Assembly (NCBI RefSeq): GCF_001543895.1
Contig: NZ_JYIJ01000011.1
Span: 146,593-170,592, forward strand
Origin: Carbonactinospora thermoautotrophica
Lineage (GTDB): Bacteria > Actinomycetota > Actinomycetes > Streptomycetales > Carbonactinosporaceae
Length of the DNA stretch: 24,000 bases
Reading direction: 5' to 3'
Below the pieces are notes generated by a model. That model did not search any database. It was not told where the DNA came from and saw nothing but the letters and a program-made list of their open reading frames with translations. The position numbers were made by a program, and so were the translations under genes. Positions 53-21,276 of this stretch are shown piece by piece. Each line of letters begins with the position of its first letter. The stretch's first letter is position 1.

Positions 53-856
53 CTACGGGCCGGCGTCGCGCTGCAACTCGATGGCGTGACCGTTGCGGCG
101 GGCCGACTCCGATGCGCTGGCCTTACCCTGGGTGCGGACCAGGATCGAGGTGCGGTCGGCGCGGAACAGGTCGTGGGAGAACTCGAACGGCTCGCCGTCC
201 GCGGTCCGTGCCGTCCGCGTGATCGACAGCAGCGCGGACCCGGGCGCGATGTCCAGGATGGCGGCTTCGTCGGGGCCGGCCAGGACCACCTCGATGCGCT
301 CGGTCACCTCGGCCGGGGTCACGCTGTAGTGCTCCTCGAGCAGCTCGTACAGCGAGCCGCCCAGGGGGAGTTCGAGCAGGCCCGGGAAGCGCTCGGCCGG
401 TAGCCTGACCTCCTCGAGCGAGATCGGCACCCCGTCGGCCAGCCGCACGCGGACGATGTCGAGAACCAGCGCGCCGGGCTTGAGGTCGAGGCTGGCGACG
501 GTGGCCTCGTCGGCGGCGGCCATCGCGGCGCTGATCACCCGGGTACCCGCGGTGAAGCCCTGCCGGCGCAGGTACGCGGGCAGGCCCGCCACGCTCGACA
601 GGTCCCGCTCGATCTTCGGATGGCTCACGAAGGTGCCGCCGCCCCGGCCGGGGACGCGGCGGACGACGCCGGCCTGTTCGAGCGCGCTGAGCGCGTGCCG
701 CAGCGTGGAGCGGCTCACGCCCAGCTCGAGGGCGAGATCACGTTCGGAGCCCAGGCGCTGGCCAGGTTGCAGCACGCCGGAGTGGATCCGCTGCAGGATG
801 AGGCGCCGTACCTCGTCCACGGCGGTCTCGGCGGACTCCTTCGAAACGTCGTTCAT
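53..856 (-). CDS. GntR-family (HutC/UTRA subfamily) transcriptional regulator, probable regulator of the adjacent BMC operon
   Basis: ORF 53..946. The N-terminal winged-HTH signature 'LGSERDLALELGVSRSTLRHALSALEQAGVVRRVPGRGGGTFV' is followed by a ~150-aa UTRA-like effector domain. The ATG at 854-856 (MNDVSKE...) is preferred over the GTG at 946 because the 30 extra codons do not look family-like. Confidence 0.85.
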   Translation of the reverse strand: MNDVSKESAETAVDEVRRLILQRIHSGVLQPGQRLGSERDLALELGVSRSTLRHALSALEQAGVVRRVPGRGGGTFVSHPKIERDLSSVAGLPAYLRRQGFTAGTRVISAAMAAADEATVASLDLKPGALVLDIVRVRLADGVPISLEEVRLPAERFPGLLELPLGGSLYELLEEHYSVTPAEVTERIEVVLAGPDEAAILDIAPGSALLSITRTARTADGEPFEFSHDLFRADRTSILVRTQGKASASESARRNGHAIELQRDAGP

Positions 857-911
857 CACCCCACCCGCGGGCTCGTCGCCGTCCACCACGCCGCCAAGTG
901 TACCCGGGGGC

Positions 912-930
912 TGACCGATCTGGTCATACC
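912..930. promoter_or_regulatory. Candidate GntR/HutC operator (TGACCGATCTGGTCATACC) upstream of the regulator gene
   Basis: It lies 56-74 bp upstream of the gntR ATG. TGACC/GGTCA are inverted arms. It shares the pattern TGAC-N5-TGGTC-N2-ACC (12/19 identical) with the site at 8022-8040. Confidence 0.35.
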
Positions 931-982
931 GAACGGCGCATCGCACCGAACCGATTGGCCGGAATCGGTCTGTTTCAGCGGA

Positions 983-1753
983 TCATGCCAGTGCCATCGC
1001 CGACTCGGGGAGAACCTGCCCGCCGTCCACCACGATGGCCTGGCCGGTGATGTACGCGGCCTCGTCGGTCGCCAGGAACAGCGCGACGTTGGCGATGTCG
1101 TCCACCGAACCGAGCCGCTTCATCGGCACCGACTGCTCCATCTGCCGCAGGTAGTCCTCCCCCAGGTCGGCGAGCCCCTCGGTGAGCACGTTGCCGGGCA
1201 GGATCGCGTTGACGGTCACGCCCTTGCCCGCCAGCTCGATCGCGGCGGTCCGGACGAACCCGAGCTGACCGGCCTTGCTCGCGCCGTAGTGGGCCCAACC
1301 CGGGTACCCGGTGATCGGCCCGGTGATCGACGAGGTGACGATCACCCGGCCGTGCCCCGACGCCTCCAGCGCCGGCAGGCACGCCCGCACCGACAGGATC
1401 GTGCCCTTGAGGTTCGTCCCGAGCACGGTGTCGATTTCCTCGACGGTCATGGTCGCCAGCGGAGCCTCGGGGAAGATCCCGGCGTTGGCGCACAGCACGT
1501 CGATGCCGCCGTGCCGCTCGCCCGCGACGGCCGCGACGCGGGCGCAGTCCTCCTCGCGGGAGACGTCGGCCGCGGTCGCCGACACCTCCCCGTAGGCCCG
1601 CAGCTCCTCGGCCGCCGCCTCGGCGACCGCCTTGTCGCGGGCGACCAGCAGGACCCGCGCGCCCGCGCGGGCGAAGGCGCGCGCGATGCCCTTGCCGATG
1701 CCCTTGCTACCCCCGGTGACGACGACCGACCGGCCCGTGAGCGGAGTGAACAC
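983..1753 (-). CDS. Short-chain dehydrogenase/reductase (SDR); by locus context the aminoacetone <-> 1-amino-2-propanol dehydrogenase
   Basis: 256-aa ORF with the Rossmann motif '[11 protein letters not shown]' and the catalytic 'YGASKAG' (YxxxK). The GTG start at 1753 follows AGGAGG. Confidence 0.9.
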
Positions 1754-1775
1754 ACCAGCCTCCTGAAGGAATCGT

Positions 1776-2771
1776 TCAGCCGAACTCGGCCAGGTACTTG
1801 TCGGCCAGGTCGCAGGTGACCCGGCTGAAATCCGCGCCCTGGGAGCGGGCCAGATCGGTGTCGGCGTGTGACCCGATCCAGGCGACCAACAGCAGGCGCC
1901 GGAGCATGACGAAGGTGGGGATCTCGGCCTCCTCCTCGGCCGAGAGGGGCAGCACGCGCCGGTACCCAGTGAGCCAGGAGTCCACCAGCTCCGGGACCTG
2001 CGGGTAGTGCTCGATGAAGCTGAGCGCGGTGGCGAGGTCGTACAGGTACCAGCTGAAACCGCAGTCGTCGAAGTCGATCACGTACGTGTCGTCGCCGTGG
2101 ACGAGCAGGTTGGCCAGCCGCATGTCGGCGTGCACGAGGCCGAACCGGCCCGGTGTCTGGCCGAAGGCACGCAGTCGCCGCTCGATCACCGCGGCGAGCC
2201 GGTCCAGCACCGCGTGCTCGTCCGGGCCGATGCCGAGGCCGTCCTGCCAGCGCCCCCAGCGCGGCGCCTCCCCGAGGGTGTGGCGGTAGTCCCAGGTGAA
2301 CCGCGTGAACCCGGTCGGGCGGCGCCAGCTCCGGGAGTGCCGGTGCATCCGGGCGGTGATCTCGCCCAACCCGGCGAACGCCTCCACCAGTCGGTCCTCC
2401 GGCGGCTCGGTTCCGGGCAGGTGTTCGAACAGCACGCAGAAGCGCGTGTCGTCCCCGCGCGGGTGGCGGGCCTGGACGACCAGGTCGCCGTCCCGGCTCG
2501 GCACGGCGGCCGGCGTGCGGACCCCGGCCTCCTCACGCAGCGCGGCGCTCCACGCCAGCTCGGAGTAGATGCCGCCACGGGTGTGGTAGCCGGTCCGGTG
2601 CACCCGCAGCACGTTCCGCCGGCCGGTCGCGGCGTCCTCGACCAGGAAGGTCGCGTTCTCGGAGATGTTGAGCAGGCTCAGCCGCGCGTCCGGGGAGACG
2701 TCGTAGTGCGCCAGCGCGGCGCGCGCGATCAGCTCCAGGTCCGCCGGCCCGGTGGGTTCGTGGCTGCCCAT
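1776..2771 (-). CDS. APH/choline-kinase-fold phosphotransferase; by context 1-amino-2-propanol kinase
   Basis: 331 aa with the catalytic loop '[11 protein letters not shown]' (HxDxxxxN) and the metal-binding 'VIDFDDCG'. The ATG at 2771 is preceded by GAGGAGG. Confidence 0.85.
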
Positions 2772-2786
2772 GCGACCTCCTCGGGC

Positions 2787-3497
2787 TCAGTGCTCGCGCC
2801 CCTCGATCGAGGAGAGGACGCGGGTGATCTCGTCGCGGGCGCGCAGGACGCCCTCGGTCGTGCCGCTGATGTATATCCGTCCCGCCGCGCCGATCATCTG
2901 CACGTCCACGAGCGTGTTCTCCGGCGCGACCTTCTCCGCCTCGTTCGCGGCCACGGCGGCGAACAGGGCCGGGGTCATCTCGTAGACGAGCAGTGTCTCG
3001 CCGGGCATCACCATCGAGGCCTGGCGGTTGCGGTTGACGATGACCGCGTGCTGGTCGGTGATGTCCTCGATGACGTCCGAGTACAGGATCCGGGGCTTGA
3101 GCTGGTCGGTGGGGCTGCAGCCGATGCCCGCGAGGATCGCCTCACCGGCCCGCCGCACGTCGTCGGCGTCGAAGCTGTGCAACTCCAGCACGCCGAACTG
3201 CCGCTCGACGAACAGGATTCCCGGCTCTACCGACGGCACCGACTTCAGTGCCAGGTCGATCACCCGCTCGATCGCGAGCCCTGGAGCCACCTCGACGATG
3301 AGCGCATGGCTGCCCTCCAACGGAGGGTAGCCCCGGGCCCGCGTCGGCGTACCCATGTACGCGGCGAACTGGCGGCGCAGGTCGTGCAGCGGCAGGTAGA
3401 CCCGCAGCTCGGTCCGGGTGCCGGTCGCCGGCGGGGCGGCGCCATCGCCGCGCCCGGCCGCTGCCCGCCTGGCCGGCGCCTTCGTCGTGCCGGCCAT
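2787..3497 (-). CDS. BMC shell protein, tandem/permuted BMC-domain type (BMC-T-like), with an N-terminal Ala/Arg/Gly/Pro-rich extension
   Basis: 236 aa and clearly paralogous to ORF 4491..5096 ('IVEVAPGLAIERVIDLALK...ILFVERQFGVLELHS...LVYEMTPA...ANEAEK' vs 'IIEVAPGLDIEPLTDVALK...ILVVERQFGYLEIHS...FVLEMQPA...TNEAEK'). It is flanked by BMC-H. Its start lies 1 nt after the BMC-H stop. Confidence 0.8.
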   Translation of the reverse strand: MAGTTKAPARRAAAGRGDGAAPPATGTRTELRVYLPLHDLRRQFAAYMGTPTRARGYPPLEGSHALIVEVAPGLAIERVIDLALKSVPSVEPGILFVERQFGVLELHSFDADDVRRAGEAILAGIGCSPTDQLKPRILYSDVIEDITDQHAVIVNRNRQASMVMPGETLLVYEMTPALFAAVAANEAEKVAPENTLVDVQMIGAAGRIYISGTTEGVLRARDEITRVLSSIEGREH

Positions 3498-3498
3498 G

Positions 3499-3780
3499 TC
3501 AGGACGCGGAGCCGTGGAAGTGGTTGGACAGCTCGCTGTGCGGACGCGGGATGACGTGCACCGACACCAGCTCGCCCACGGACGAGGCGGTCTCGGCGCC
3601 GGCCTCGGTGGCGGCCTTGACCGCGCCCACGTCGCCCTTGATCACGACGGCGACCAGGCCGTCGCCGACCTGCTCACGGGCCACGATCGTGACGTTCGCG
3701 GCCTTGACCATGGCGTCGGCGGCGGCGAGCGCGGCGACGTATCCCTTGGTCTCGATCATGCCGATGGCGTTGCTGGACAT
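3499..3780 (-). CDS. BMC-H hexameric shell protein (PduA/EutM/CcmK fold, Pfam00936-type)
   Basis: 93 aa. '[26 protein letters not shown]...[23 protein letters not shown]' is a canonical BMC-domain sequence. Confidence 0.95.
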
Positions 3781-3781
3781 C

Positions 3782-4045
3782 TCACTTCTCCTTCGGTTCG
3801 GCCGACACCGGCTCGTCGATCGAGCCGATGATCAGCGCGTCAATCGGGGGGTGGTTCGGCAGCCAGGACGAGGCGACCGACCCCTGGGCGACCAGGACCC
3901 GCTCGCCTACGCCGCTGCCGAGGACGTCGAACGCGACCAGTCGACTGCCGGACCCGTCGACCTCGACCTCCAGGAACGCGCCGCCCGGGATCCCGTCGAC
4001 CCGCTTGGTCGACCACACCGGGGCGACGACCGTCGCCCGCAGCAT
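3782..4045 (-). CDS. BMC-P pentameric vertex protein (EutN/CcmL family)
   Basis: 87 aa. '[29 protein letters not shown]...[25 protein letters not shown]' matches the EutN/CcmL pattern. Its ATG shares 1 nt with the upstream stop (TGATG). Confidence 0.9.
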
Positions 4046-4494
4046 CAGGCCTCCTTCTCGATCGGTACCCGCAGCGCCCGGGCCCGCTCGCGGGCCAGGG
4101 GCGTGATCACCGCACGCCGGCCGAGCACCAGGCGCGCTCCCTCCTTCGCCGCGGCGACCACGGTGGACTCGGTGACCGCGCCGCGCTCGACGCGCCGCAC
4201 GGCCGGGAGGCGAGGTGCGGCAGGTTCTTCCTGTGTGGGTTCTGCCTGTGTGGGCGCTGGGCCGGTCAGCCGGAAGCGCAGCCGCCCGGTCCGCACCGCC
4301 TCGCGGCGTGCGGGGTCCTCGTACAGCTCCAGCAGCCGCAGCACGAAGGCGTGCAGGTCCGCGTCGTCGGCGATGGTCACCGGCTCGACGCGAGGCTCGG
4401 CTGCGGAGACGCTCCGGACCACCTCGGGCAGGACCTCGCGCAGCACCTGGCGGATGACGGAGCGCAGCGCGTCGCGGTCGACCGGAGCGGTCAT
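4045..4494 (-). CDS. Hypothetical 149-aa BMC-associated protein (amphipathic N-terminal helix, PTQxE-repeat linker, small C-terminal domain)
   Basis: This is the last 149 codons of ORF 4045..5043. The ATG at 4494 overlaps the upstream BMC-T stop as ATGA. GC3 is high. It sits between two shell genes. No family was recognised with certainty. Confidence 0.7.
   Translation of the reverse strand: MTAPVDRDALRSVIRQVLREVLPEVVRSVSAAEPRVEPVTIADDADLHAFVLRLLELYEDPARREAVRTGRLRFRLTGPAPTQAEPTQEEPAAPRLPAVRRVERGAVTESTVVAAAKEGARLVLGRRAVITPLARERARALRVPIEKEA
4223..4252. repeat. 15-bp tandem duplication (14/15 identical) encoding PTQAE-PTQEE in the 149-aa protein linker
   Basis: ggttcttcctgtgtg / ggttctgcctgtgtg read directly from the sequence. 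Confidence 0.9.
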
Positions 4495-5096
4495 TCCAGC
4501 CTCCGCAGTGCCGTCTCGGCCGCCTCGGCGGCCATCCGGACGTCGGACTCGCGTCCGCTCAGGTACACCCGGCCGGTGGCGCCCATCATCCGGTAGTCCA
4601 CGACCTTGATCTGGGCCGCCTTCTCCGCCTCGTTGGTGGCGAGGATCGCGTACGAGGCGGGCTGCATCTCCAGCACGAACAGCGATTCGTGCGGGAGGAT
4701 CATCGATCCGGCCTTGTTCCTGTTGATCAGGAACGCGTGCAGGTGGTCGACGCTGCTGATGATCTTGGATGCGAGGATCTTCGGCCGGGTGGCGTCCTCC
4801 TCGCTCACGCCGAGCGTCTCCAGCACGGCGGCGCTGGCGCTGCGCACCGCGGCGGTCGACCGGGAGTGGATCTCCAGGTAGCCGAACTGCCGTTCGACCA
4901 CCAGGATCCCGGCCTGGACTTGGGCGTGCTTGAGCGCGACGTCGGTGAGCGGCTCGATGTCCAGCCCGGGGGCGACCTCGATGATCTGCGCGGCCATGTT
5001 GGTGCGCGGCAGGCTGCCCCGGATCCAGGTGCCGAGATAGCACATGGTCTGCGGCTGGAGCTGGTCGATGAAAATGAACGAGCGCAGTTCGGCCAT
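4491..5096 (-). CDS. BMC shell protein, tandem/permuted BMC-domain type (BMC-T-like)
   Basis: 201 aa and a paralog of 2787..3497. The ATG at 5096 lies 2 nt after the aldehyde dehydrogenase stop. Confidence 0.85.
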   Translation of the reverse strand: MAELRSFIFIDQLQPQTMCYLGTWIRGSLPRTNMAAQIIEVAPGLDIEPLTDVALKHAQVQAGILVVERQFGYLEIHSRSTAAVRSASAAVLETLGVSEEDATRPKILASKIISSVDHLHAFLINRNKAGSMILPHESLFVLEMQPASYAILATNEAEKAAQIKVVDYRMMGATGRVYLSGRESDVRMAAEAAETALRRLE

Positions 5097-5098
5097 GG

Positions 5099-6655
5099 TC
5101 AGACCTTGATCAGCTCGCGCAGTTCCTCGATGACCAGCCGCCGGATCTCCTCGCGGAGAACCGAGAGCTCATCGGGAGCCGCGGGGGACGGGACGGGATC
5201 CGCGGCCGGCCCCCCAGCGTGGCCGCGGGCGTTCGAGGCCACCGGGTACGGCGGCATCGGGACCGGCTGCGGCGGGTACGTCTGCCACGGCTGCAGCCCG
5301 GAGAAGTCGCCGAACGGCACGGCGGCGTCGGCGTTGTACGCGATCCGGGTCCAGTTGACCAGGTGCTCCGGGCGCAGGTTCTCCCCGACCGAGCTGCGGC
5401 CGAGGAACCCGGTGCCGATCGTCATCGACGGCGCCAGGTGGGTGTCGAAGCCCGCGCTGCCGGTGCTCGACCCCACGTTGACCGCGACCCGCAGCACGTC
5501 CACGGCCGCCGCGTACGCCATGATCGTGCGCGGGTCCGTGGAGTGGATCGCCGCGGAGTGGCCAGCGCCGCCGATCCGCAGGATTGCCCGGCTGGCCCGG
5601 ATGCCGCGCTCCACGGTCGGCACCCGCAGCACGGCGAGCACGGGGCACAGCTTCTCGTGCGCCAGCGGCTCCTCAGGCACGGCCAGCTCGATCGGAGCGA
5701 GCAGCACCCGGGTCCGCGGGGAGACCTGGATGCCGGCCTGCTGGGCGATCCAGCCGGCGTCCTTGCCGACGGCGGCGGTGTTGAAGTGCCCGTCCGGGAA
5801 CAGGAACTCCCGCAGCCGGTCGCGCTCGGCCGGCGTGGCGAGGTAGGCGCCCTCGGCCTCCAGGTGGCGCAGGAACGCGTCGGCCGCCTTGTCCTCGACG
5901 ACCAGCACCGACTCGTTGGTGCACAGCACCGAGTTGTCGAAGCTCTTGCTGTCGACCAGCCGCTTCGCGGCCGCCGGCAGGTCGGCCGTGGCGTCCACGA
6001 GCACCGGCGCGTTGCCCGGGCCGACCCCGATCGCCGGGTTGCCCGACCGGTAGGCGGCGCGCACCACGGCCGTGCCGCCGGTGGCCAGGATCACGTCCAC
6101 CCGGTCATCGCCCATCACGGCGTTGATCAGCGGGATCGACGGCTGGTCGATCACCTGGACCACCCCGTCCGGGGCGCCCGCCTGGTACGCGGCGGCGGCC
6201 AGCGTCCGCGCCGCGTCGGCGCAGCATTCGCGGGCCATCGGGTGCGGGCTGATGATGATCGCGTTGCGCGTCATCAGCGCCAGCAGGACCTTGAAGTACA
6301 CGGTCGAGACCGGGTTGGTCGACGGGGTGAGCGCGAACACGATCCCCGCCGGCCGGGGCACCTCGACGAGCTTGCGCCCGGCGTCGATCCGCGCGCTGAC
6401 CAGGTCGGTGTCCGCGTAGTGCTCGGCCAGGCCGCGCGAGCACAGCTCGTTCTTGAGCCGCTTGTGCTCGACGACCCCGAAGCCGGTCTCCCGGACCGCC
6501 CACTCCGCGTAGTGCTGGGCCTTCGCGTACGCGACGTCCGCCACCGCCTGGACGATGCGCCGGACCCGCTCCCGGTCGTACCGGGCGAAGGCCGCCGCCG
6601 CCCATTCGGCGCGCTGCAGCATCAGCCGGGCCCGCTCCAGGGCCGCGTCGGTCAT
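5099..6655 (-). CDS. CoA-acylating aldehyde dehydrogenase (PduP/EutE-like) with a C-terminal encapsulation peptide
   Basis: 518 aa taken from the internal ATG at 6655 (MTDAALERAR...), which overlaps the upstream stop as ATGA. The catalytic Cys context is 'KSFDNSVLCTNES'. A Pro-rich linker is followed by the amphipathic tail 'ELSVLREEIRRLVIEELRELIKV'. The 28 Arg/Gly-rich codons upstream in ORF 5099..6739 are rejected. Confidence 0.9.
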   Translation of the reverse strand: MTDAALERARLMLQRAEWAAAAFARYDRERVRRIVQAVADVAYAKAQHYAEWAVRETGFGVVEHKRLKNELCSRGLAEHYADTDLVSARIDAGRKLVEVPRPAGIVFALTPSTNPVSTVYFKVLLALMTRNAIIISPHPMARECCADAARTLAAAAYQAGAPDGVVQVIDQPSIPLINAVMGDDRVDVILATGGTAVVRAAYRSGNPAIGVGPGNAPVLVDATADLPAAAKRLVDSKSFDNSVLCTNESVLVVEDKAADAFLRHLEAEGAYLATPAERDRLREFLFPDGHFNTAAVGKDAGWIAQQAGIQVSPRTRVLLAPIELAVPEEPLAHEKLCPVLAVLRVPTVERGIRASRAILRIGGAGHSAAIHSTDPRTIMAYAAAVDVLRVAVNVGSSTGSAGFDTHLAPSMTIGTGFLGRSSVGENLRPEHLVNWTRIAYNADAAVPFGDFSGLQPWQTYPPQPVPMPPYPVASNARGHAGGPAADPVPSPAAPDELSVLREEIRRLVIEELRELIKV

Positions 6656-7941
6656 CGAACACCCCCTCCCACCAGGCCGGCGACCTCCCGCCGCGCGACG
6701 GCGACCGCGACGTCGAGGCGGTCGAGGATCTCTTCGCACAGCCGCGGGTCGAGCAGGATGCCGGGCTTGAACTGCAGCACCCGGGGGTCGAGCGTCGAGA
6801 AGATCGCCCAGACCCCGTTGTCGTACAGGGCCTTCATCACGTAGTTGGCGCCGCGCGGGTGGTCGAATTCCAGGCCCATGACAACCCCGTCCTGGCGGAT
6901 GCCGACGAAGAAGTCCGGGTACCGGGCCTGGATCTCGGCGAGCCCCCGGCCCAGCAGGTCGGCGATGTAGTGCACCATCGAGCGGACCTCGGGCCGCTGG
7001 CAGATCTCGATCACCTTGAGACCGACCACGCAGCCCAGCTCGGCGCCACCCATCGTCGACATGTGGGCGAATCCGTCCTTGGTCAGCCAGCCGGCGCAGC
7101 GCTCGCTCACCACGACGCAGGCCAGCGGGTACATGCCGCCGGAGATGCCCTTGCCGATGACGAGCAGGTCAGGCTCGACGTCGTGCTTGGTGATCCCCCA
7201 CATCTCGCCGGTGCGCATGAGCCCGGTCTGCACCTCGTCGGCGATGTAGAGCGCGTCGTACGTCTCGCAGAGCCGCTTGACCTCTCGCAGGTAGCCGGGG
7301 TTCGGCAGTGGAAAGCCGTACGTCGCGGGGATCGTCTCCAGGATCACGGCGGCGACGTCGCGCCCGCGCAGGGCGGCCTCCATCGCGGCCAGGTCGTTGA
7401 ACGGCACGTGCACGAACTCGTCCGGCCGGTCGGCCAGGAAGATCTTCGAGAACCGGTCGTCGCCCAGGCCGACCGCGAGCCCGGTGTGCCCGTGGTACGC
7501 CTTGATGATCGACACGATCTTGCGCTTGCCGGTCACGTGACGGGCGGTCTTGAGGGCGATGTCGACGGCCTCGCCGCCACCGCTGGCGTAGATCACCTTG
7601 CTCATGTTCGGCGGGCACGCCTTGACCAGCGCCTCGGCGAGCGCCGTGCGGGCGAGCGACGGGAAGTGGTGGTTGCCGATGTCGAACCGCTCCATCGCGA
7701 CCCGCAGGGCCTCCACCAGCTCCGGGTTGCGGTGGCCGAGGTTGTAGGTGCCGCCGTTGAGGTGGACGTCGATGAGCCGCTTGCCCGACATGTCGTACAG
7801 GAAGTAGCCCTCGCGCCGGTCGATGACCAGGTCGACCCCGGAGTCGATCCAGTGCTGGGTCTTTCCCGGGTTCCAGTAGGCCTTCGCCTTGTCGAGGACC
7901 TCGCCCTTGGAGGCGAACGAGAAGAAGCCGTAGTCGTGCAT
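6652..7941 (-). CDS. Class-III (PLP) aminotransferase-fold enzyme; by context 1-amino-2-propanol O-phosphate phospho-lyase
   Basis: 429 aa with typical class-III AT blocks ('IKAYHGHTGLAVG', 'LYIADEVQTGLMRTG', PLP-Lys context 'LLVIGKGISGG'). It is the first gene of the minus-strand operon. Confidence 0.9.
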   Translation of the reverse strand: MHDYGFFSFASKGEVLDKAKAYWNPGKTQHWIDSGVDLVIDRREGYFLYDMSGKRLIDVHLNGGTYNLGHRNPELVEALRVAMERFDIGNHHFPSLARTALAEALVKACPPNMSKVIYASGGGEAVDIALKTARHVTGKRKIVSIIKAYHGHTGLAVGLGDDRFSKIFLADRPDEFVHVPFNDLAAMEAALRGRDVAAVILETIPATYGFPLPNPGYLREVKRLCETYDALYIADEVQTGLMRTGEMWGITKHDVEPDLLVIGKGISGGMYPLACVVVSERCAGWLTKDGFAHMSTMGGAELGCVVGLKVIEICQRPEVRSMVHYIADLLGRGLAEIQARYPDFFVGIRQDGVVMGLEFDHPRGANYVMKALYDNGVWAIFSTLDPRVLQFKPGILLDPRLCEEILDRLDVAVAVARREVAGLVGGGVR

Positions 7942-8169
7942 GACCTGCCCGTCTGCGGTCTCGGGGGTCCGCGGCCGGCGTCATACCGTAACCGCTTTTG
8001 GTTGGACCGAAACCGTAGAAGGGTCAGACCATCGATGTCAATGGGTTGAACCAAGTTACAAGAATTTAAACCGAAACTCTTGAAACTCGCCTACCACGAG
8101 TGCCACCATCCCCGGCAATCGCGCTTCCGCGGGCCCGCGCACCATACCCCAACGGAGGTATCGGCCACC
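7942..8169. promoter_or_regulatory. Divergent promoter/operator region between the BMC operon and the permease gene
   Basis: 228-bp intergenic gap containing the only AT-rich patch in the locus (ccaagttacaagaatttaaaccgaaactcttgaaact). It holds the palindromes GGTCAGACC (8022-8030) and GGTTGAACC (8044-8052) and the direct repeat ACCGAAAC (8006-8013, 8070-8077). Confidence 0.6.
8022..8040. promoter_or_regulatory. Candidate GntR/HutC operator (minus-strand reading TGACATCGATGGTCTGACC)
   Basis: It shares TGAC-N5-TGGTC-N2-ACC with the 912-930 site. It contains a GGTC-N-GACC palindrome, the core type used by HutC-family regulators such as DasR. Confidence 0.35.
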
Positions 8170-9705
8170 GTGAGCACCACAGAGGAACGTATCTCCACCG
8201 CCACCGCGACGACCCCCGATGTTCAGCGGCTACGCAAGGGCGCGGTCGGCATGGTCGGCGTCATCTTCATGGCCGTGGCGACGGCCGCGCCCATCACCGC
8301 CATGGTCGGGAACGTGCCGGTCGCGGTCGGCTACGGCAACGGCATCGGGGCGCCGGCCGGCTACCTCATCGCCACCGTCGTGCTGACCGTCTTCTCGGTC
8401 GGCTACGTCGCGATGGCTCGGCACATCACCGCGACCGGGGCGTTCTACGGCTACGTCTCACACGGGCTCGGCCAAGTCGTCGGCATGATCGCCGGGCTGC
8501 TGGCCGCCCTCTCCTACATCGTGTTCGAGGCTGCGCTGGTCGGGATCTTCTCGTACTTCGCCCACAACACGGTCCGCGACCTGCTCGGCCTCAACGTCCA
8601 CTGGCTCGTGTTCGCCCTGCTCATGCTGGGCGTGAACGCGGCGCTCACGTACTTTGACATCACCCTCACCGAGCGGGTGCTCGGCCTCTTCTTGCTCACC
8701 GAGATCGCGATGCTCAGCCTCATGGCGGTCGCGGTCCTCGTGCACGGCGGCGGCCCCGACGGCCTCGCCGTGTCCGCGCTCAACCCGCTGAACGGCCTGC
8801 GGCCCGCCACCAGCGTGGCCGGCGCGTCGGCCACGCTCGGCCTGTTCATGGCCTTCTGGTCGTGGGTGGGCTTCGAGTCGACCGCGATGTACGGGGAGGA
8901 GTCCCGCGACCCCAAGCGGATCATCCCGCGCGCCACCCTGCTCGCGGTGGTCGGGATCGGCATCTTCTACGTGTTCGTCTCGTGGATGGCGATCGCCGCC
9001 AACGGCCTGCACCAGTCGGTCGCGATCGCGGGAGGGAAGGACCCGAGCCAGCTGTTCTTCGCGCCCACCGAGCGGCTGGTCGGCCACTGGGCCGTCGTGA
9101 TGTTCGAGATCCTGCTCGTGACCGGGTCGTACGCCTGCGGCATGGCGTTCCACAACTGCGCCGCCCGCTACCTGTACGCGATCGGCCGGGAGAACCTCAT
9201 CCCCGGCACCGGCCACACGCTCGGCGCCACCCACCCCCGGTACCGCTCGCCGTACGTCGCCGGGTTCACCCAGACCGCCATCGCCACCACGCTTGTGCTG
9301 CTGTTCTGGGTGACCGGCAAGGACCCCTACCTGGAGCTGTACGTGCTGCTCGCCATCCTCGGCACCATGGCGATCCTAATCGTACAGAGCCTGTGCTCGT
9401 TCGCCGTGATCGGGTACTTCCACGTGCGCCGCAAACACCCCGAGACCCGCAGCGTCTGGCGCACCCTCCTCGCCCCGTTGCTCGGCGGGGTCGGGATGAT
9501 CTACATCATCGTGCTGCTGTTCCAGAACCAGCAGACGGCGGCCGGGGCGGCGTCCAAGGACCTGCTCTTCAAGCTCATCCCCTACATCGTGCTCGGCACC
9601 GCCGCGCTCGGCGCCGGCCTCGCCCTGTACCTGCGCGCGCGGCGGCCGGACAAGTACGAGATCATCGGCCGGATCGTGCTCGAAGACACCATCGAGCGGG
9701 ACTGA
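8170..9705 (+). CDS. APC-superfamily amino acid/amine permease (probable substrate importer for the BMC pathway)
   Basis: ORF 8080..9705 (TTG). About 12 hydrophobic segments with a typical APC N-terminus 'LRKGAVGMVGVIFMAVATAAPITAM'. The GTG at 8170 is preferred because GGAGG lies at 8154-8158. The start is uncertain. Confidence 0.85.
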   Translation: MSTTEERISTATATTPDVQRLRKGAVGMVGVIFMAVATAAPITAMVGNVPVAVGYGNGIGAPAGYLIATVVLTVFSVGYVAMARHITATGAFYGYVSHGLGQVVGMIAGLLAALSYIVFEAALVGIFSYFAHNTVRDLLGLNVHWLVFALLMLGVNAALTYFDITLTERVLGLFLLTEIAMLSLMAVAVLVHGGGPDGLAVSALNPLNGLRPATSVAGASATLGLFMAFWSWVGFESTAMYGEESRDPKRIIPRATLLAVVGIGIFYVFVSWMAIAANGLHQSVAIAGGKDPSQLFFAPTERLVGHWAVVMFEILLVTGSYACGMAFHNCAARYLYAIGRENLIPGTGHTLGATHPRYRSPYVAGFTQTAIATTLVLLFWVTGKDPYLELYVLLAILGTMAILIVQSLCSFAVIGYFHVRRKHPETRSVWRTLLAPLLGGVGMIYIIVLLFQNQQTAAGAASKDLLFKLIPYIVLGTAALGAGLALYLRARRPDKYEIIGRIVLEDTIERD

Positions 9706-9881
9706 CCCCGGGTATCCCCGCGCTGTAGCACTGCGACGTCCAGGCGCTCGCCCGGCGTCCTCGGCGAACTCGGCGTCGGCTTCCGGACCGTCCGGGCCGG
9801 CGCCGAGGCCCGCGACCCGGGCTGGGCGCCGGGCCTGATCCGGCGCTGGTCGCTGCGGCCGGTCCGGGGCTCGCCGTCATC

Positions 9882-10514
9882 GTGTGGGTCGGGTACCGGG
9901 CGCCGAAGCTTCCGGGAGTCGCTGCGGCACGCGCCGAGCTGGCCCGGGCCGGGGCGGCGAGCCTGGCCCGCTTCGTCCACGGCCTGGCCGTAGCCGGTCG
10001 GCCGGTGAGCGTGCTGTTCTGCCACAGTTACGGCTCGGTGGTCTGCGCTCTCGCGGTCCGCGACGTGCACGTCACGGACCTGGTCGTCTACGGAAGCCCC
10101 GGGATGCGCGCCCGGTCCGTCGCCGCACTCGGGACGCCGGCCCACGTCTGGGCGGCCCGGTCGGCCGGCGACTGGATTGAGTGGGTGCCACACGTGACGT
10201 TCCTCGGCTTCGGCCACGGCCCCGACCCGGTCGCCCCAGCCTTCGGCGCGCGGGTCATCAATGCGTCTGGCGCCCATGGGCACGGCGGATACTTCGTCCC
10301 CGGCACGGTGTCCTTGCGCAACTTCGCTCTCATCGCCCTGGGCCGCTACGCGGACGTGACCTGTATGCCCGGCGCAGCCTGCCTTGCCGGGCTGGCCCAC
10401 GCGCCCACCGCCGGTCACGCCACGATCCGCCCGAAGCCCAGACGTAGGGCCTGGTCCCAGAACCTACGGCCGGGCAGGTACCGGCCATCGCCGGATGCGC
10501 GGCACCCCTTTTGA
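9882..10514 (+). pseudogene. 5'-truncated alpha/beta hydrolase fragment (DUF1023/Abhydrolase_8-like)
   Basis: The 'WVGYRAP', nucleophile-elbow-like 'CHSYGS', 'VYGSPG' and 'GHGGYF' blocks match my recollection of the DUF1023 hydrolase family. The N-terminal part of the domain is absent. The frame is open only back to 9729, and those codons are Arg-rich nonsense. Confidence 0.5.
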
Positions 10515-10568
10515 GCGCGAGCCTGGTGCTTGGCCCCGCGACACGACTCGCGCCCTGGAGGTGCCACG

Positions 10569-11300
10569 ATGACCGACCTACTCGACCCGATGCCCGAGGA
10601 CTGGCAGCGTTGCCTGGCGATCGCGGCACACCCGGATGATCTGGAATACGGCGCTTCCGGGGCGGTCGCCGTCTGGACGGGCGCGGGCCGCGAGGTGTCG
10701 TACGTGCTGGTCACCCGGGGCGAAGCGGGCATCGACGGGATGACGCCCGCGCAGGCCGCGGTGGTACGGGAGGAGGAGCAACGCGCGAGCGCCGCGGTGG
10801 TGGGGGTGCGAAACGTGGAGTTCCTCGACCACCGCGACGGGGTCATCGAGCCCGGGCTGGCGCTGCGCCGCGACCTCGCCGCGGCGATCCGGCGGTACCG
10901 CCCGGAGCTGGTCGTCACCCTCAACCATCACGACTACTGGGGCCAGGGAGGGTGGAACAGCGCGGACCACCGGGTCGTCGGCCGCGCGGTGCTCGACGCC
11001 GTCGCCGACGCCGGGAACCGGTGGGTCTTCCCGGAGTTGGCCGAAGCCGGCCTGGAACCCTGGGACGGGGTGCGCTGGGTCGCGGTGGCGGGCTCGCCGC
11101 AGGCGACACACGCGGTGGACGTCTCCGCCACCCTGGACCGGGCCGTCGCCTCGCTGGCCGCCCACCACGCGTACCTCGCCGCGCTCGGGGACGAACCCCC
11201 TGAACAGCAGGCCCGCGCGTTCGTCAGCCGCACCACCACGCAGGCCGCCGCGCGGTTCGGCGGCCAGCCCGCGGTCACGTTCGAACTCCTCGCCCGGTGA
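10569..11300 (+). CDS. PIG-L/LmbE-family N-acetylglucosaminyl deacetylase
   Basis: The '[16 protein letters not shown]' (AHPDD) motif, 'VTRGEAG' and 'HxDH'-type 'NSADHRVVG'. The ATG at 10569 follows GGAGGTG. Confidence 0.85.
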
Positions 11301-11687: not shown

Positions 11688-13190
11688 GTGACCGAAGCAA
11701 CGGCCGCGCCGCGCTACGCCAGCTCGGCCGGCCGGTGGGTGATCGCAGCGACCGTTCTGGGCTCGGGCATGGCCGCCCTGGACGCGACGGTCGTCGGTAT
11801 CGCGCTGCCGACGCTCGGCCGCGACTTCCACGCCGGCTTCGAGGCCCTGCAGTGGGTCGTGACCGGCTACGCGCTCACGCTCGCCGCGCTGCTGCTGCTC
11901 GGAGGAGCGCTGGGTGACCGGTACGGGCGGCGACGAGTCTTCATCGTGGGGACCCTGTGGTTCGCGGCCGCGTCCCTGCTCTGCGGGGTCGCGCCGAACG
12001 TAGCGGTGCTCATCGCGGCCCGGGCACTCCAAGGCGTCGGAGGGGCGCTGCTCACCCCGGGCAGCCTCGCCATCCTGCAGGCGTCGTTCCAGCCCGCCGA
12101 CCGGCCGAAAGCCATCGGCGCGTGGTCCGGCCTCGGCGGCGTCGCCACCGCCGTCGGCCCGTTCCTCGGCGGCTACCTCATCGCGGCGGCGTCGTGGCGG
12201 CTCATCTTCCTCATCAACCTCCCGGTGGCGGCGCTCGTCGTCGCGGTCGCCGTGCGGCATGTCCCCGAGACCCGCGACGCGACAGCTCCGTCGCGCCTCG
12301 ACGTACCCGGCGCAGCCCTCGCGGTCATCGGGCTCGGCGGGCTCACCTACGGCCTGATCGAGGGGCCCGTGCGCGGATGGGCCAGCCCAAGCACGCTGGC
12401 CGCCCTAGCTCTTGGTGTCACGGGGCTTGTTGCCTTCGTCGTGGTGGAGGCGCGCTCGCCCGCGCCGATGCTGCCGCTCGGCATCTTCCGCTCCGGGCAG
12501 TTCAGCGCGGCTAACATCGTGACCTTCGCGGTGTACAGCGCTCTCGGCGGCGCCCTCTTCCTGCTGCCGATCCAGCTGCAGCAGGTCGCCCACTACACCC
12601 CGCTAGCGGCGGGGGCCGCCCTGCTTCCCGTCACGGCGATCATGCTGCTGCTCTCGTCCCGCTCGGGCGCGCTCGCCGTCCGGATCGGCCCCCGCCTCCA
12701 GATGAGCCTCGGGCCGGTGATCAGCGCCATCGGGCTCGCCCTGCTCGCCCGGGTCGACGCCGACAGCGGGTACGTCACCGAGGTGCTGCCCGCGATGACG
12801 GTCTTCGGCTTCGGGCTCGCCACGACCGTCGCCCCCCTCACCTGGACCGTGTTGGAGTCCGCCCCGGCGGAGCACGCCGGCGTCGCATCCGGGATCAACA
12901 ACGCCGTGGCCCGGGCCGCCGGCCTGATCGCGGTCGCGGTCCTGCCGGCCGCCGCCGGCATCACCCGCGAGGACTACCTGGACCCGGCCGCGTTCACCAC
13001 GGGCTTCCGGGTGGCCGTGTTGATCGCCGCCGCCACGTGCGCGCTCGGCGGCCTGCTCGCCGCGGTCACCATCCGCCGGCCGCTCGAAGGCGTACCGCCG
13101 CCGCGCCGGCCTTGGCTGGAGACCCACTGCGCCCTCGACGCGCCGCCGCTTCGCGGCCACCACGTGCTCACCCGCAAGGAGGCACCATGA
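11688..13190 (+). CDS. MFS transporter, DHA2/EmrB-like drug:H+ antiporter family
   Basis: 500 aa. 'LDATVVGIALPTLGRDF', 'GALGDRYGRRRVFIVG' (MFS motif A) and 'RALQGVGGALLTPGSLAIL'. The number of hydrophobic segments is consistent with 14 TMS. GTG start. Confidence 0.9.
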   Translation: MTEATAAPRYASSAGRWVIAATVLGSGMAALDATVVGIALPTLGRDFHAGFEALQWVVTGYALTLAALLLLGGALGDRYGRRRVFIVGTLWFAAASLLCGVAPNVAVLIAARALQGVGGALLTPGSLAILQASFQPADRPKAIGAWSGLGGVATAVGPFLGGYLIAAASWRLIFLINLPVAALVVAVAVRHVPETRDATAPSRLDVPGAALAVIGLGGLTYGLIEGPVRGWASPSTLAALALGVTGLVAFVVVEARSPAPMLPLGIFRSGQFSAANIVTFAVYSALGGALFLLPIQLQQVAHYTPLAAGAALLPVTAIMLLLSSRSGALAVRIGPRLQMSLGPVISAIGLALLARVDADSGYVTEVLPAMTVFGFGLATTVAPLTWTVLESAPAEHAGVASGINNAVARAAGLIAVAVLPAAAGITREDYLDPAAFTTGFRVAVLIAAATCALGGLLAAVTIRRPLEGVPPPRRPWLETHCALDAPPLRGHHVLTRKEAP

Positions 13191-13249
13191 ACGCCGCCTG
13201 ATGACGGGGCCTGTGGCCAGGCAATGGCTCTCGCCGCATGGAAAAGACC

Positions 13250-13490
13250 ATGGGCGGCCGCGTGCGGCGCGGCAGGGATGTCCATCTCGTCCTACTATGA
13301 GGGGAAGACACCAGAACAGCAAGAACCCCGTGGAGCCGAGCGGGAGCCACTGGCCGAGATCCACACAACCACATCGAGTCCGAGGGCACCTACGGGCTGC
13401 TGCGCACGACGACCGAACAGCTCTACCGAGCACGGCACGTGAACCCCAAGCGGTGGAGCGGCTCATGCGCATGACGCGGAGCATGCACGA
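13250..13490 (+). mobile_element. Degenerate IS3-family transposase (OrfB N-terminal region) remnant with at least two frameshifts and no DDE domain
   Basis: Three frames together read '...CGAAGMSISSYYEGKTPEQ..RGAEREPLAEIH' / 'IESEGTYGLLRTTTEQL...HVNPKR' / 'VERLMRMTRS'. This parallels the IS3 OrfB pattern LGVSRSGYYxWK...R..L...I...H.ES.GTYG.PR....L......V..KRV.RLMR. GC is locally lower. Confidence 0.5.
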
Positions 13491-13659
13491 CGGCGACGGA
13501 CACGACCAGCACCACGACTCCAGCGAGTCGCCCGACCACACCACCGTCCGCTGACGCTCTCCCGCTGGGGGCACTGCGGACAGGCCGGCGGGTGCGCTGG
13601 CCCACCTCGACAGGCTGGCGTGTTGATCAAGCCAGCATCAAGAAAGGAAGTGCGTGGTC

Positions 13660-14451
13660 ATGGGCATTGCTCGTCGCCTAGCTCTGCTGTTTCGGATGAA
13701 GGCGGACGAAGCCCTCGATCGTGCGGAAGACCCGCGCGAGGTGCTGGACTACTCCTACGAACGCCAGCTGGAGATGCTGACCAAGGTGCGCCGGGGCGTG
13801 GCCGACGTGGTCACCAGCCGTAAGCGCCTTGAGCTGCAGCTCGGCCAGCTGCGGCAGGCCGCCGACCGGCTCCAGACGCAGGCCCGGCAGGCCGTCGACG
13901 CGGGCCGGGACGACCTGGCCCGGGAAGCGCTGACCCGACGGTCGGCCGCGCTGACCCAGATGGCCGCCATCGCAGCCCAGCGGGACGCGTTGCAGGCCGA
14001 GGAGGACAAGCTCACCCTCGCCGCGCAGCGGCTGCAGGCCAGGGTGGAGGCGTTCCGGAGCCGCAAGGAGACCATCAGGGCCACCTACACCGCCGCCGAA
14101 GCGCGGACCCGCATCGGCGAAGCGGTCTCCGGCATCTCCGAGGAGATGGGCGACGTCGGCCTGGCCATGCAGAGGGCCGAGGACAAGACCGTGCAGATGC
14201 AGTCGCGCGCCGCGGCCCTCGACGAGCTGATCGCCTCCGGCGCTCTCGACGACGCCACGCTGCCGGCCGGGCAACGCGACGACATCCAGGCCGCGCTCGA
14301 CGCCGCCCGCGGCGACGCCGACATCGAACACCAGCTCACCGCGTTGAAGACCCAACCCGCCCTCACCGCACAACCCGCCCCAGCCGACAACGACCCCGAC
14401 GCGCCCCGGACCATCACCGGCACGCGCTCGACAGAAGAGGGCAAGCCGTGA
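13660..14451 (+). CDS. pspA: PspA/IM30 family membrane-stress protein
   Basis: A long coiled-coil with the family N-terminus 'GIARRLALLFRMKADEALDRAEDPREVLDYSYERQLEMLTKVRRGVADVVTSRKRLE'. The ATG at 13660 follows GAAAGGAAG. Confidence 0.9.
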   Translation: MGIARRLALLFRMKADEALDRAEDPREVLDYSYERQLEMLTKVRRGVADVVTSRKRLELQLGQLRQAADRLQTQARQAVDAGRDDLAREALTRRSAALTQMAAIAAQRDALQAEEDKLTLAAQRLQARVEAFRSRKETIRATYTAAEARTRIGEAVSGISEEMGDVGLAMQRAEDKTVQMQSRAAALDELIASGALDDATLPAGQRDDIQAALDAARGDADIEHQLTALKTQPALTAQPAPADNDPDAPRTITGTRSTEEGKP

Positions 14452-14624
14452 TCACCAGCATCCTGGGCGAGGGCCGGCACGCCGCGGCGCTCCAACAGCT
14501 TCTCGCCACCGTCCGCACCCTGGGTACCGCCGTGCCGCTCACCGTCTTTGACCTCGTCCTGCCCGGCGAGGGCGCCGGCCTGGAAGAGGGCGCCGCCTTG
14601 CTCGGCGACGAGAGTCCGGGTTGA
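14448..14624 (+). CDS. 58-aa mini-ORF coupled to pspA (PspAA-like, apparently shortened)
   Basis: It is not in the ORF track because it is under 60 aa. The GTG at 14448 overlaps the pspA stop as GTGA. It translates to VITSILGEGRHAAALQQLLATVRTLGTAVPLTVFDLVLPGEGAGLEEGAALLGDESPG and stops 4 nt before the htpX ATG. About 50 of 58 third codon positions are G/C. Confidence 0.5.
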   Translation: MITSILGEGRHAAALQQLLATVRTLGTAVPLTVFDLVLPGEGAGLEEGAALLGDESPG

Positions 14625-14628
14625 CCTC

Positions 14629-15552
14629 ATGCGTACCCGATTCCGGCCCGACCGGCAGCTGACGGCCCGCATGGTGTTCACCATGTTCCTGCTGGGCCTG
14701 GTGTATGTGGCGTTCGTCGCCGCGCTCATCGTCTTGATCAAGTCGGTGTTCGTCGTCGTGCTCATCGCCGGTGGGCTGCTGGCCGCGCAGTACTGGTTCT
14801 CCGACCGCATCGCCCTGTACGCCATGCGCGCCAAGGTCGTCACCCCGGAGGAGGAGCCGAGGCTGCACGGCGTCATCGACCGGCTCTGCGCCACCGCCGA
14901 CATGCCCAAACCACGGGTCGCCGTCGCCGACACCGACCTGCCCAACGCGTTCGCCACCGGGCGCAACACCCGCCGGGCGGTGGTGTGCGTGACGACCGGT
15001 CTCCTGCGGCGCCTCGACACTGCCGAACTGGAAGGCGTGTTGGCCCACGAGCTGTCCCACGTCGCCCACCGCGACGTGGTCGTGATGACCGTGGCGTCGT
15101 TCCTCGGCGTGCTGGCCGGGCTGGTGGCTCGTTTCGCGTTCTACTCCGGGCTGTTCGGCGGCCGTGGACGCCGCGACGGCAACGACAACAACGCCTACCT
15201 CGTCGTCCTGCTCGTCATGGTCGTCTCCGCGGTCGTGTACGCCGTCAGTTTCCTGCTGGTACGGGCGCTGTCGAGGTACCGGGAGCTGGCCGCCGACCGG
15301 TCCGGGGCGATGCTCACCGGCCGCCCCTCGGCGCTGGCGTCGGCGTTGACGAAGGTCAGCGGCGAGATGGCCCGGATCCCCACCCGCGACCTGCGGACAG
15401 CCGAGGCGTTCAACGCGTTCTTCTTCGCCCCCGCGCTCGGCTCCCGGGCCAGCCTGTCCACGCTGCTGTCCACCCACCCCACCTTGCAGCGGCGGCTGGA
15501 CCAGTTGGCCGCCATCTCCACCGAACTGGGAGGGCCAGCCCCGAACCCATGA
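14629..15552 (+). CDS. htpX: M48-family zinc metalloprotease HtpX
   Basis: 'LAHELSHVAHRD' (HExxH), TM helices around the catalytic domain and a C-terminal 'LSTHPTLQRRLDQL'. The internal ATG at 14629 (MRTRFRPDRQL) is preferred over the ORF-track start at 14548. Confidence 0.9.
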   Translation: MRTRFRPDRQLTARMVFTMFLLGLVYVAFVAALIVLIKSVFVVVLIAGGLLAAQYWFSDRIALYAMRAKVVTPEEEPRLHGVIDRLCATADMPKPRVAVADTDLPNAFATGRNTRRAVVCVTTGLLRRLDTAELEGVLAHELSHVAHRDVVVMTVASFLGVLAGLVARFAFYSGLFGGRGRRDGNDNNAYLVVLLVMVVSAVVYAVSFLLVRALSRYRELAADRSGAMLTGRPSALASALTKVSGEMARIPTRDLRTAEAFNAFFFAPALGSRASLSTLLSTHPTLQRRLDQLAAISTELGGPAPNP

Positions 15553-18119: not shown

Positions 18120-18157
18120 CGGCTCTTCCTCTCCGTGACGTCGGCGGCGCGGCGGTG

Positions 18158-18430
18158 TCAGGCGATCGCCGATGAGTCAAAGGCCTCGATCTCGTCGCGA
18201 TAGGCCTGTCCTAGCTTCTCCATCGCGGCGCGCGTCAGCTTCGCCTCGTTCTCATCGATCTTCGCCATGGCGAATCCGACGTGCACCAGCACCCAGTCGC
18301 CGGTCCGCAGCCCCTCCTCGGCGAGCAGCCGCACGCTGATGGTGCGCTGCACCCCGCCGGCGTCGACCTTCGCAAGGTGCTGCTCGGCGTCGACGATCTC
18401 AACCACCTGGGCGGGAATCCCCAGACACAT
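18158..18430 (-). CDS. hypC: HypC/HybG/HupF-family hydrogenase chaperone (copy 2)
   Basis: 90 aa with the N-terminus 'MCLGIPAQVVEI' and 'GDWVLVHVGFAM'. Confidence 0.9.
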   Translation of the reverse strand: MCLGIPAQVVEIVDAEQHLAKVDAGGVQRTISVRLLAEEGLRTGDWVLVHVGFAMAKIDENEAKLTRAAMEKLGQAYRDEIEAFDSSAIA

Positions 18431-18481
18431 GTGATGCCTCCTCGCATGCCGCGCTGCCGTCTGACCGCGGCGTCGTCCTCG

Positions 18482-21274: not shown

Positions 21275-21276
21275 GG

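Follow-up and report, generated by a model that had tools for sequence, protein, structure and literature searches.

ORF149, a small modular protein of RMM microcompartment loci, is a candidate PduM-like shell-cargo linker

A central question for metabolosomes concerns the attachment of cargo to the shell, and the Pdu and Eut systems already provide examples of structural linkers with a signal helix. In the Pdu compartment, the published role of PduM is the coupling of shell and core (PMC12108088; PMC9132943). Its residues 1-23 form a signal sequence that is needed for normal encapsulation and is sufficient to target GFP to the core (PMC12108088), and loss of these residues, or of the whole of pduM, leads to partial core/shell separation and oversized compartments (PMC12108088; PMC9132943). 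In the Eut compartment of Salmonella, the shell-cargo linker is formed by residues 1-99 of EutQ, in which helices H1/H2 (9-41) are assigned to shell association by deletion and localisation experiments, helices H3/H4 are assigned to the binding of encapsulation peptides (EPs; Kd about 6 uM for EutC(1-20)), and a flexible region lies between the two pairs; both EutL and EutM are needed (PMC12487888). For the RMM, or aminoacetone, compartment, shell structures have been solved and the enzymes characterised (bacterial microcompartment (BMC) catalogue), and no assembly factor is named in the literature searched. Here we describe ORF149, a 149-residue open reading frame (ORF) that lies among the shell genes of a complete RMM1-type operon in a 24,000-nt stretch of the Carbonactinospora thermoautotrophica genome (NZ_JYIJ01000011.1, positions 146,593 to 170,592; hereafter the window). 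On balance, and by analogy, we favour the reading that its product is a non-enzymatic, minimal PduM-like shell-cargo linker of the RMM (aminoacetone/aminopropanol) microcompartment, and we compare it below with the systems just described. The coordinates of all features are collected in Table 1.

ORF149 is a real gene. Among the proteins of C. thermoautotrophica its product is listed as ‘hypothetical protein TH66_02415’ (100% identity), and a Shine-Dalgarno sequence, GGAGG, is found at 4504-4500 (minus strand), 5 nt upstream of the ATG and inside the 3' end of the preceding BMC-T gene. Homologues number 1229 at E<=1e-3, every one of them unnamed or ‘hypothetical’ and none with a Pfam domain, and a genome scan places relatives in 456 species; among the loci seen, the family is almost wholly confined to Actinomycetota. 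The gene order BMC-T / ORF149 / BMC-P / BMC-H / BMC-T is kept in all members of a sample of 80 genome loci, with aldehyde dehydrogenase (ALDH) and aminotransferase genes flanking it to one side and kinase, SDR and GntR genes to the other. Since this sample was chosen through ORF149 itself, a second set of 80 metagenome loci was retrieved via the neighbouring BMC-T protein, and in this independent retrieval ORF149 lies between BMC-T and BMC-P in 72 of the 72 loci that have sufficient downstream DNA. The conservation across RMM loci that was at issue in an earlier reading of the window from its sequence alone (the original prediction) thus holds in both samples. The coupling on both sides that it described can likewise be read in the sequence, with the start of ORF149 sharing an ATGA with the BMC-T stop and its own stop sharing a TGATG with the BMC-P start. 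Both overlaps are conserved in the genome sample, where the BMC-T gene ends in ATGA or GTGA in 76/80 loci and TGATG occurs in 70/80. A spurious or decaying, functionless reading frame would have the absence of annotation in its favour and nothing more, and is refuted by the conservation data: the many homologues, invariant residues in three modules, strict synteny and conserved coupling, together with the Shine-Dalgarno sequence and the high confidence of the AlphaFold2 (AF2) model.

The family is unannotated, has no Pfam model and is undiscussed in the RMM literature searched. Comparison of the whole of ORF149 and of each of its modules with Pfam, NCBIfam and PDB sequences gave no family above threshold and no solved relative, and Pfam detects no enzymatic domain in ORF149 or in 25 relatives. 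The description of RMM1 in the BMC catalogue makes no mention of the protein. The Mycobacterium smegmatis homologue, which we take to be MSMEG_0274, is the subject of no paper found in the literature searched, and the copy in Rhodococcus jostii RHA1 is labelled ‘hypothetical protein’ in RefSeq. The RMM locus on the RHA1 plasmid pRHL2 gave the sole match in a tblastn search of plasmids with the C-terminal module. On pRHL2 (NC_008270.1) the block BMC-T / ORF149 homologue / BMC-P / BMC-H occurs twice (8108-9704 and 12001-13597 of locus L082), with identical protein accessions in the two copies (WP_011600238 to WP_011600241) and an aminotransferase gene between them. This arrangement is a recent tandem duplication of a shell-plus-linker cassette.

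The anatomy of ORF149 was derived from the family alignment and an AF2 model (mean pLDDT 86.9, pTM 0.39), and consists of three conserved modules joined by variable Ala/Pro/Gly-rich linkers. The first module is the N-terminal helix (pLDDT 77-89), which exceeds every other 18-residue segment of ORF149 in amphipathicity (hydrophobic moment 0.57, with 0.62 for the N-terminal signal helix of PduM) and has a strongly conserved core with the family consensus ‘ELRALVREVLRDLLP’; the N-terminal helix of the original prediction is therefore borne out by the model. It is followed by a linker of 5-84 aa across the family. The middle module, which was overlooked in the original prediction, as was the PduM precedent, contains the invariant residues V39, L47, G70, F74 and L76 and has the consensus V.I..DADL.AFV.RLL.L.E.P..R..LR.GRLRFRL (pLDDT 88-97). 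It has no significant match in PduM or among PDB sequences, and is family-specific. The second linker is A/P/G-rich, ranges from 11 to 61 aa in the family and has a pLDDT of about 52-75; the PTQAE/PTQEE repeat that had been singled out earlier is present at residues 81-90, as C. thermoautotrophica's own version of this unconserved segment. The C-terminal module, foreseen as a unit of about 45 aa, has a pLDDT >95 and is nearly invariant in the family (motifs GAVTE and LVLGRRAV[IL]TPLAR). Both its low pTM and the variability of its linkers suggest that ORF149 has the shape of beads on a flexible string.

In sequence and prediction, the N-terminal part of ORF149 has the architecture of an encapsulation peptide, that is, a terminal amphipathic helix next to a poorly conserved linker in a protein encoded at a BMC locus. 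It shares this combination with the EPs of metabolosome cargo (PduP, PduD, EutC, EutE and the C-terminus of the RMM ALDH), where the helix is about 15-20 residues long. Unlike these peptides, which are carried by enzymes, the predicted EP-like helix of ORF149 is located on a small non-enzymatic protein, a situation for which PduM and PduB are the sole reported precedents (PMC12108088). In about 72 of 76 RMM loci the ALDH has a C-terminal EP, with the consensus ‘ALREEIRRLVIEEL’, that is preceded by a variable linker, and the ORF149 helix probably partners with this peptide in the cargo core. The original prediction had described the N-terminus as closely resembling the ALDH tail. What remains of this resemblance is the amphipathic pattern: the similarity of the two profiles peaks at register 0 but is equally high at shifts of +/-4, so that the likeness is at the level of pattern and not of homology. 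A specific sequence relationship between the two helices was accordingly rejected, the recurrence at +/-4 reflecting generic amphipathic periodicity.

EP-like helices occur in the locus only on the ALDH and on ORF149. For the kinase, SDR and class-III aminotransferase, the Pfam catalytic domain leaves about 10-60 residues at each end (in the kinase, the APH domain covers 38-271 of 331 residues), and inspection of these ends by eye revealed no helix-plus-linker extension like that of the ALDH, which is consistent with the earlier statement that only the ALDH carries an obvious EP. One could therefore picture ORF149 as an adaptor that uses its folded modules to lend its own N-terminal EP to the EP-less kinase, phospho-lyase and SDR, with no link between core and shell; the strong conservation of a middle module that has no assigned partner would suit such a role, as would the piggy-back encapsulation suggested for EutG (PMC12487888). 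We regard this as fairly unlikely. ORF149 is coupled to shell genes rather than enzyme genes, the sole module with detectable relatives points to the shell-linking PduM and EutQ N-terminus, and no evidence of contact with the kinase, phospho-lyase or SDR was found. Of the adaptor-or-scaffold idea in the original prediction, the general part is supported, indirectly, by the synteny, the helix-plus-linker architecture and the PduM/EutQ-like module, and the tethering of the three EP-less enzymes is the part left unsupported.

A further candidate within the locus was the BMC-T encoded at 2787-3497, which has an N-terminal extension of about 29 aa before its CcmP-like domain and might have carried a linker like PduB(1-37). 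Across the 80 genome loci this extension varies from 2 to 40 aa and is Pro/Ala-rich and unconserved, and for this reason a PduB(1-37)-like element was rejected. The RMM locus offers no linker candidate other than ORF149.

For the comparison with PduM, the Salmonella protein was recovered together with 119 diverse representatives of its family, of which 56 were aligned, all of them confirmed members of TIGR04493. The profile of the ORF149 C-terminal module matches the extreme C-terminus of PduM in hhalign with a probability of 84-87% (P 3.9e-6 to 8e-6), while controls gave <=0.5% for column-shuffled profiles, 8% for a reversed alignment and <=30% for block-shuffles that keep motif fragments. 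The order of secondary structure elements at the C-terminus, beta-alpha-beta-alpha-beta, is identical in the AF2 models of the two proteins, and PduM matches the N-termini of EutT and EutQ in the same register. The module also weakly matches the C-termini of the NCBIfam models of PduM (TIGR04493, 13.3 bits with a cut-off of 50; NF011957, 15 bits with a cut-off of 179), and 2 of 25 ORF149-family members match the Pfam model of PduM, PF15953 (PDU_like), with a best E of 0.087. When the ORF149 alignment was enlarged to 105 sequences, its Neff dropped to 1.9 and the C-terminal match alone was retained.

The two proteins belong to the same size class (163 aa for PduM, 149 aa for ORF149), have an N-terminal amphipathic helix (an experimentally shown signal in PduM, a predicted one in ORF149), carry at the extreme C-terminus the same module, with the pattern ...h-h-T-x-L-A-x-E...I..IE+, have no enzymatic domain, and are encoded immediately upstream of a BMC-P gene, which in Salmonella is pduN (order pduL-pduM-pduN). 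They differ in that the central region of PduM has no detectable similarity to ORF149, that ORF149 has three modules on flexible linkers rather than one compact domain, and that its compartment is of another type, whose shell proteins include BMC-T(dp). We call ORF149 ‘PduM-like’ because of the shared size class, signal-type helix, C-terminal module and gene position. We do not assign it to the PduM family, given that only the C-terminal module is shared, the predicted fold is different and no model is matched above its cut-off. PduM itself was said in a 2025 paper to have no known homologues outside Pdu compartments (PMC12108088).

The shared gene position also bears on another possible role, that of a vertex or size-control factor that would act with the BMC-P pentamer, in its recruitment or in shell closure, rather than as a core tether. 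The TGATG overlap with the BMC-P start codon in 70 of the 80 loci would be in keeping with this, as would the fact that pduM directly precedes pduN and that pduM mutants give enlarged or elongated compartments, and PduM has been proposed to help control size (PMC12108088; PMC9132943). Gene adjacency is, however, the only specific evidence, and it does not extend to other carriers of the C-terminal module: the genes for EutQ and EutT do not adjoin eutN, and the gene for a module protein of a MIC1-type locus (see below) adjoins BMC-T, not BMC-P. We consider a vertex role quite unlikely.

The PduM match is one of several that suggest a relationship of the C-terminal module with PduM, EutQ, EutT, TIGR02536 and a protein of a MIC1 locus; these are moderate, mutually consistent profile matches, among which there is no single decisive result. 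The original prediction had pointed to a similar module at the N-termini of some Eut- or Pdu-associated proteins, under the name Co_AT_N. The resemblance is half right, in that EutT and EutQ of E. coli carry the motif ‘ITE...TP.AR’ at their N-termini, but the name is wrong: Pfam Co_AT_N (PF12557) has no match at E<=1 in ORF149 or its 25 relatives, and none in E. coli EutT. In hhalign, the module profile matches residues 4-46 of EutQ over 41 columns with a P of 8.9e-5 and a probability of 60%, which is below conventional certainty, and residues 5-42 of EutT with a P of 0.0024. As a control of specificity, 46 proteins were compared, comprising the E. coli eut region and the window, and only EutQ (P 2e-4) and EutT (P 6e-3) stood out, both at their N-termini; the next best value was 0.058. 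Searches with the EutQ N-terminus, aimed at a diverse profile, recovered little besides fragments and frameshifted copies from enterobacteria, and these were of no use in building one.

The ORF149 module aligns onto the H1/H2 region of EutQ. Both proteins have a flexible linker between a shell-side and a cargo-side element, with amphipathic helices on the cargo side. The order of the modules is reversed in EutQ (shell module, cargo-binding helices, cupin domain), the EutQ helices are the binders of cargo EPs whereas in ORF149 it is the helix that resembles an EP, and the cupin/acetate-kinase domain of EutQ (PF06249, residues 85-232 in E. coli) has no Pfam match in ORF149.

The occurrence of the module on ATP-using Eut proteins (the adenosyltransferase EutT and the acetate kinase EutQ), and the Rossmann-like alpha/beta folds that are its weak structural neighbours, could be taken to mean that it is a small nucleotide- or cofactor-binding unit, with ORF149 having a regulatory or cofactor-handling function inside the compartment. 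We view this as very improbable, as the module contains no glycine-rich or other nucleotide-binding motif, the ORF149 modules have no significant match, in structure or in sequence, to any solved protein, the catalytic domains of EutQ and EutT are located elsewhere in those proteins, and PduM has no known enzymatic function (PMC12108088; PMC9132943).

TIGR02536, a family of ethanolamine-utilisation proteins from the EUT2 loci of Firmicutes, carries the same module at its C-terminus, as ORF149 does; the similarity is limited to the module. This link is based solely on HMM-to-sequence (hidden Markov model) matches. ORF149 weakly matches positions 161-205 of the 207-position NCBIfam model (E 0.0045), and the C-terminal region of the model is matched by 24 of 25 ORF149-family members and also by 6 of 56 PduM relatives. 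The scores of the ORF149 family are 16.6-18.9 bits, compared with a cut-off of 152.6, and do not amount to full-length membership. Residues 1-61 of EutQ match the same stretch as the ORF149 C-terminus (positions 162-205, with EutQ residues 2-38). In a computational atlas, the Listeria TIGR02536 protein is predicted as a trimer stacked on the trimer of EutL, a BMC-T (PMC13181095). According to the Eut study, the EutQ proteins found among Gram-positive bacteria (Listeria, Enterococcus) are without the first three N-terminal helices. Because these EutQ proteins are without them and the TIGR02536 C-terminus carries the module, TIGR02536 may take on the shell docking that falls to EutQ in enterobacteria.

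The MIC1-type locus is on plasmid pRB98 of Rhodococcus oxybenzonivorans (NZ_CP021355.1), where a 128-aa hypothetical protein (9621-10007 of locus L164) is encoded directly downstream of the BMC-T(dp) gene and overlaps its end by 4 nt. The N-terminus of this protein, ‘GELVVGAKDIITPLARELARERGVRIV’, matches the ORF149 C-terminal module in hhalign with a probability of 94% (P 1.5e-7), and is followed by a Pro/Ala/Ser-rich tail of about 85 aa. The module gene thus adjoins the BMC-T(dp) gene in both RMM and MIC1 loci, and the roles of PduM, EutQ and TIGR02536 tie the module each time to a BMC-T-class shell protein or to its surroundings.

Taken with the published work on PduM and EutQ, from which each binding step below is drawn by analogy, these comparisons outline how ORF149 might act as a PduM-like linker. 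The N-terminal helix would serve as an encapsulation or signal peptide that assembles together with the ALDH's C-terminal EP helix, to which it is similar, and would place ORF149 in the cargo core. The C-terminal module would dock on the shell's inner face, perhaps at BMC-T trimers or beside them, and the Ala/Pro/Gly linkers of variable length would be flexible tethers that give reach. The middle module would make an additional contact, either in oligomerisation or in the binding of another cargo protein.

Several points weigh against the linker reading. PduM homology is detectable only over the C-terminal ~40 residues: although full-length profiles give a co-linear ORF149/PduM alignment of 136 columns (65% in hhalign), this alignment is carried by the C-terminal module, because separate tests of the modules are significant there only, with the N-helix alone reaching a P of 0.059 (in the right place) and the middle module 0.075 (in the wrong register); full-length homology was therefore rejected. 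The HH probabilities of 60-87% over 30-45 columns suggest homology without proving it, and ORF149 matches no family model in Pfam or NCBIfam above threshold. PduM is predicted to be a single compact domain (pLDDT 96.9, pTM 0.87), as opposed to the beads-on-string model of ORF149 (pTM 0.39). On the functional side, shell binding by EutQ H1/H2 is known through the localisation of deletion mutants and not from structure, and in cells without PduB(1-37), PduM co-localised with cargo and not with the shell (PMC9132943). Since PduM stayed with the cargo, the partner of the module may be an extension of a shell protein rather than the shell surface. The literature searched contains no experiments on any RMM homologue of ORF149.

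A broader idea, which we put forward tentatively and hold to be somewhat less probable than not, is that the beta-alpha-beta-alpha-beta module of ~45 residues is a shell-docking domain of ancient origin that metabolosomes have in common, perhaps with specificity for BMC-T trimers, and that ORF149 would be the smallest version of it to stand alone, a docking domain with an EP helix. The shared motif is [IV]T[EY]..V......G..LVL.....[IV]TPLA[RK][ED].A...G[IV].IE. The newer point here, relative to the linkers already described, is that a single small module appears by sequence to be common to PduM, EutQ, EutT, TIGR02536, the MIC1 protein and the RMM protein.

The operon spans 53-7941 and is transcribed on the minus strand, in the direction from the aminotransferase gene (7941) to the GntR gene (53). 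Its genes are tightly packed, with gaps of 1-2 nt at the ALDH/BMC-T (5096-5101), BMC-P/BMC-H (3780-3782) and BMC-H/BMC-T (3497-3499) boundaries. An ATGA at 6655-6652 is shared by the stop of the aminotransferase gene and the likely start of the ALDH gene, and a longer, GTG-initiated ALDH ORF that reaches 6739 is probably not the form used. Elsewhere in the window, the minus strand at 16986-23826 contains a [NiFe]-hydrogenase maturation cluster, and the genes for a PspA/IM30-family protein, an M48 peptidase and a PIG-L deacetylase are unrelated to the microcompartment.

Table 1. Features of ORF149, its operon and the remainder of the window (positions are those of the window)
Feature	Position	Strand	Remarks
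ORF149	4045-4494	-	149 aa; ATG 4494-4492, TGA stop 4047-4045
N-terminal amphipathic helix	4402-4476	-	residues 7-31 of ORF149; conserved core 9-23 ‘ALRSVIRQVLREVLP’; from AF2, conservation and hydrophobic moment
Middle module	4267-4392	-	residues 35-76, beta-alpha-alpha-beta; from alignment and AF2
Flexible Pro/Ala/Thr/Glu linker	4201-4266	-	residues 77-98; includes PTQAE/PTQEE repeat; unconserved
C-terminal module	4054-4200	-	residues 99-147, beta-alpha-beta-alpha-beta; proposed shell-docking module
BMC-T (double-stacking, CcmP-like; second BMC-T in window order)	4491-5096	-	upstream of ORF149, overlaps its start (ATGA)
BMC-P (EutN/CcmL) vertex gene	3782-4045	-	downstream of ORF149, overlaps its stop (TGATG)
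BMC-H	3499-3780	-	
BMC-T (CcmP-like, double-stacking type)	2787-3497	-	
Aldehyde dehydrogenase (ALDH)	5099 to about 6655	-	
ALDH C-terminal encapsulation peptide	5102-5167	-	‘LSVLREEIRRLVIEELRELIKV’; from translation and conservation across loci
Class-III aminotransferase-fold enzyme	6652-7941	-	
Aminoglycoside-phosphotransferase-type kinase	1776-2771	-	
SDR	983-1753	-	
GntR regulator	53-946	-	
Permease	8080-9705	+	
PIG-L family deacetylase	10530-11300	+	
PspA/IM30-family protein	13654-14451	+	
M48 (HtpX-like) peptidase	14548-15552	+	after the PspA/IM30-family gene
HypD	16986-18119	-	
HypC	18158-18430	-	
HypE-like AIR-synthase-fold protein	18482-about 19600	-	
SIS-domain protein	19606-20271	-	
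303-aa protein	20268-21179	-	only domain is a C-terminal HypC/HupF
Second HypC	21002-21280	-	
HypF	21277-about 23631	-	

Small and modular, ORF149 is an obvious candidate for the assembly factor of the RMM compartment. Should the link to the other microcompartment proteins be wrong, ORF149 would remain an RMM component that is conserved in every locus examined. If the reading of a shared module is true, one common anchoring device would underlie assembly in the Pdu, Eut, RMM and MIC1 compartments, and such a docking domain, of which ORF149 provides a copy from a thermophile, could be used in the engineering of cargo loading.

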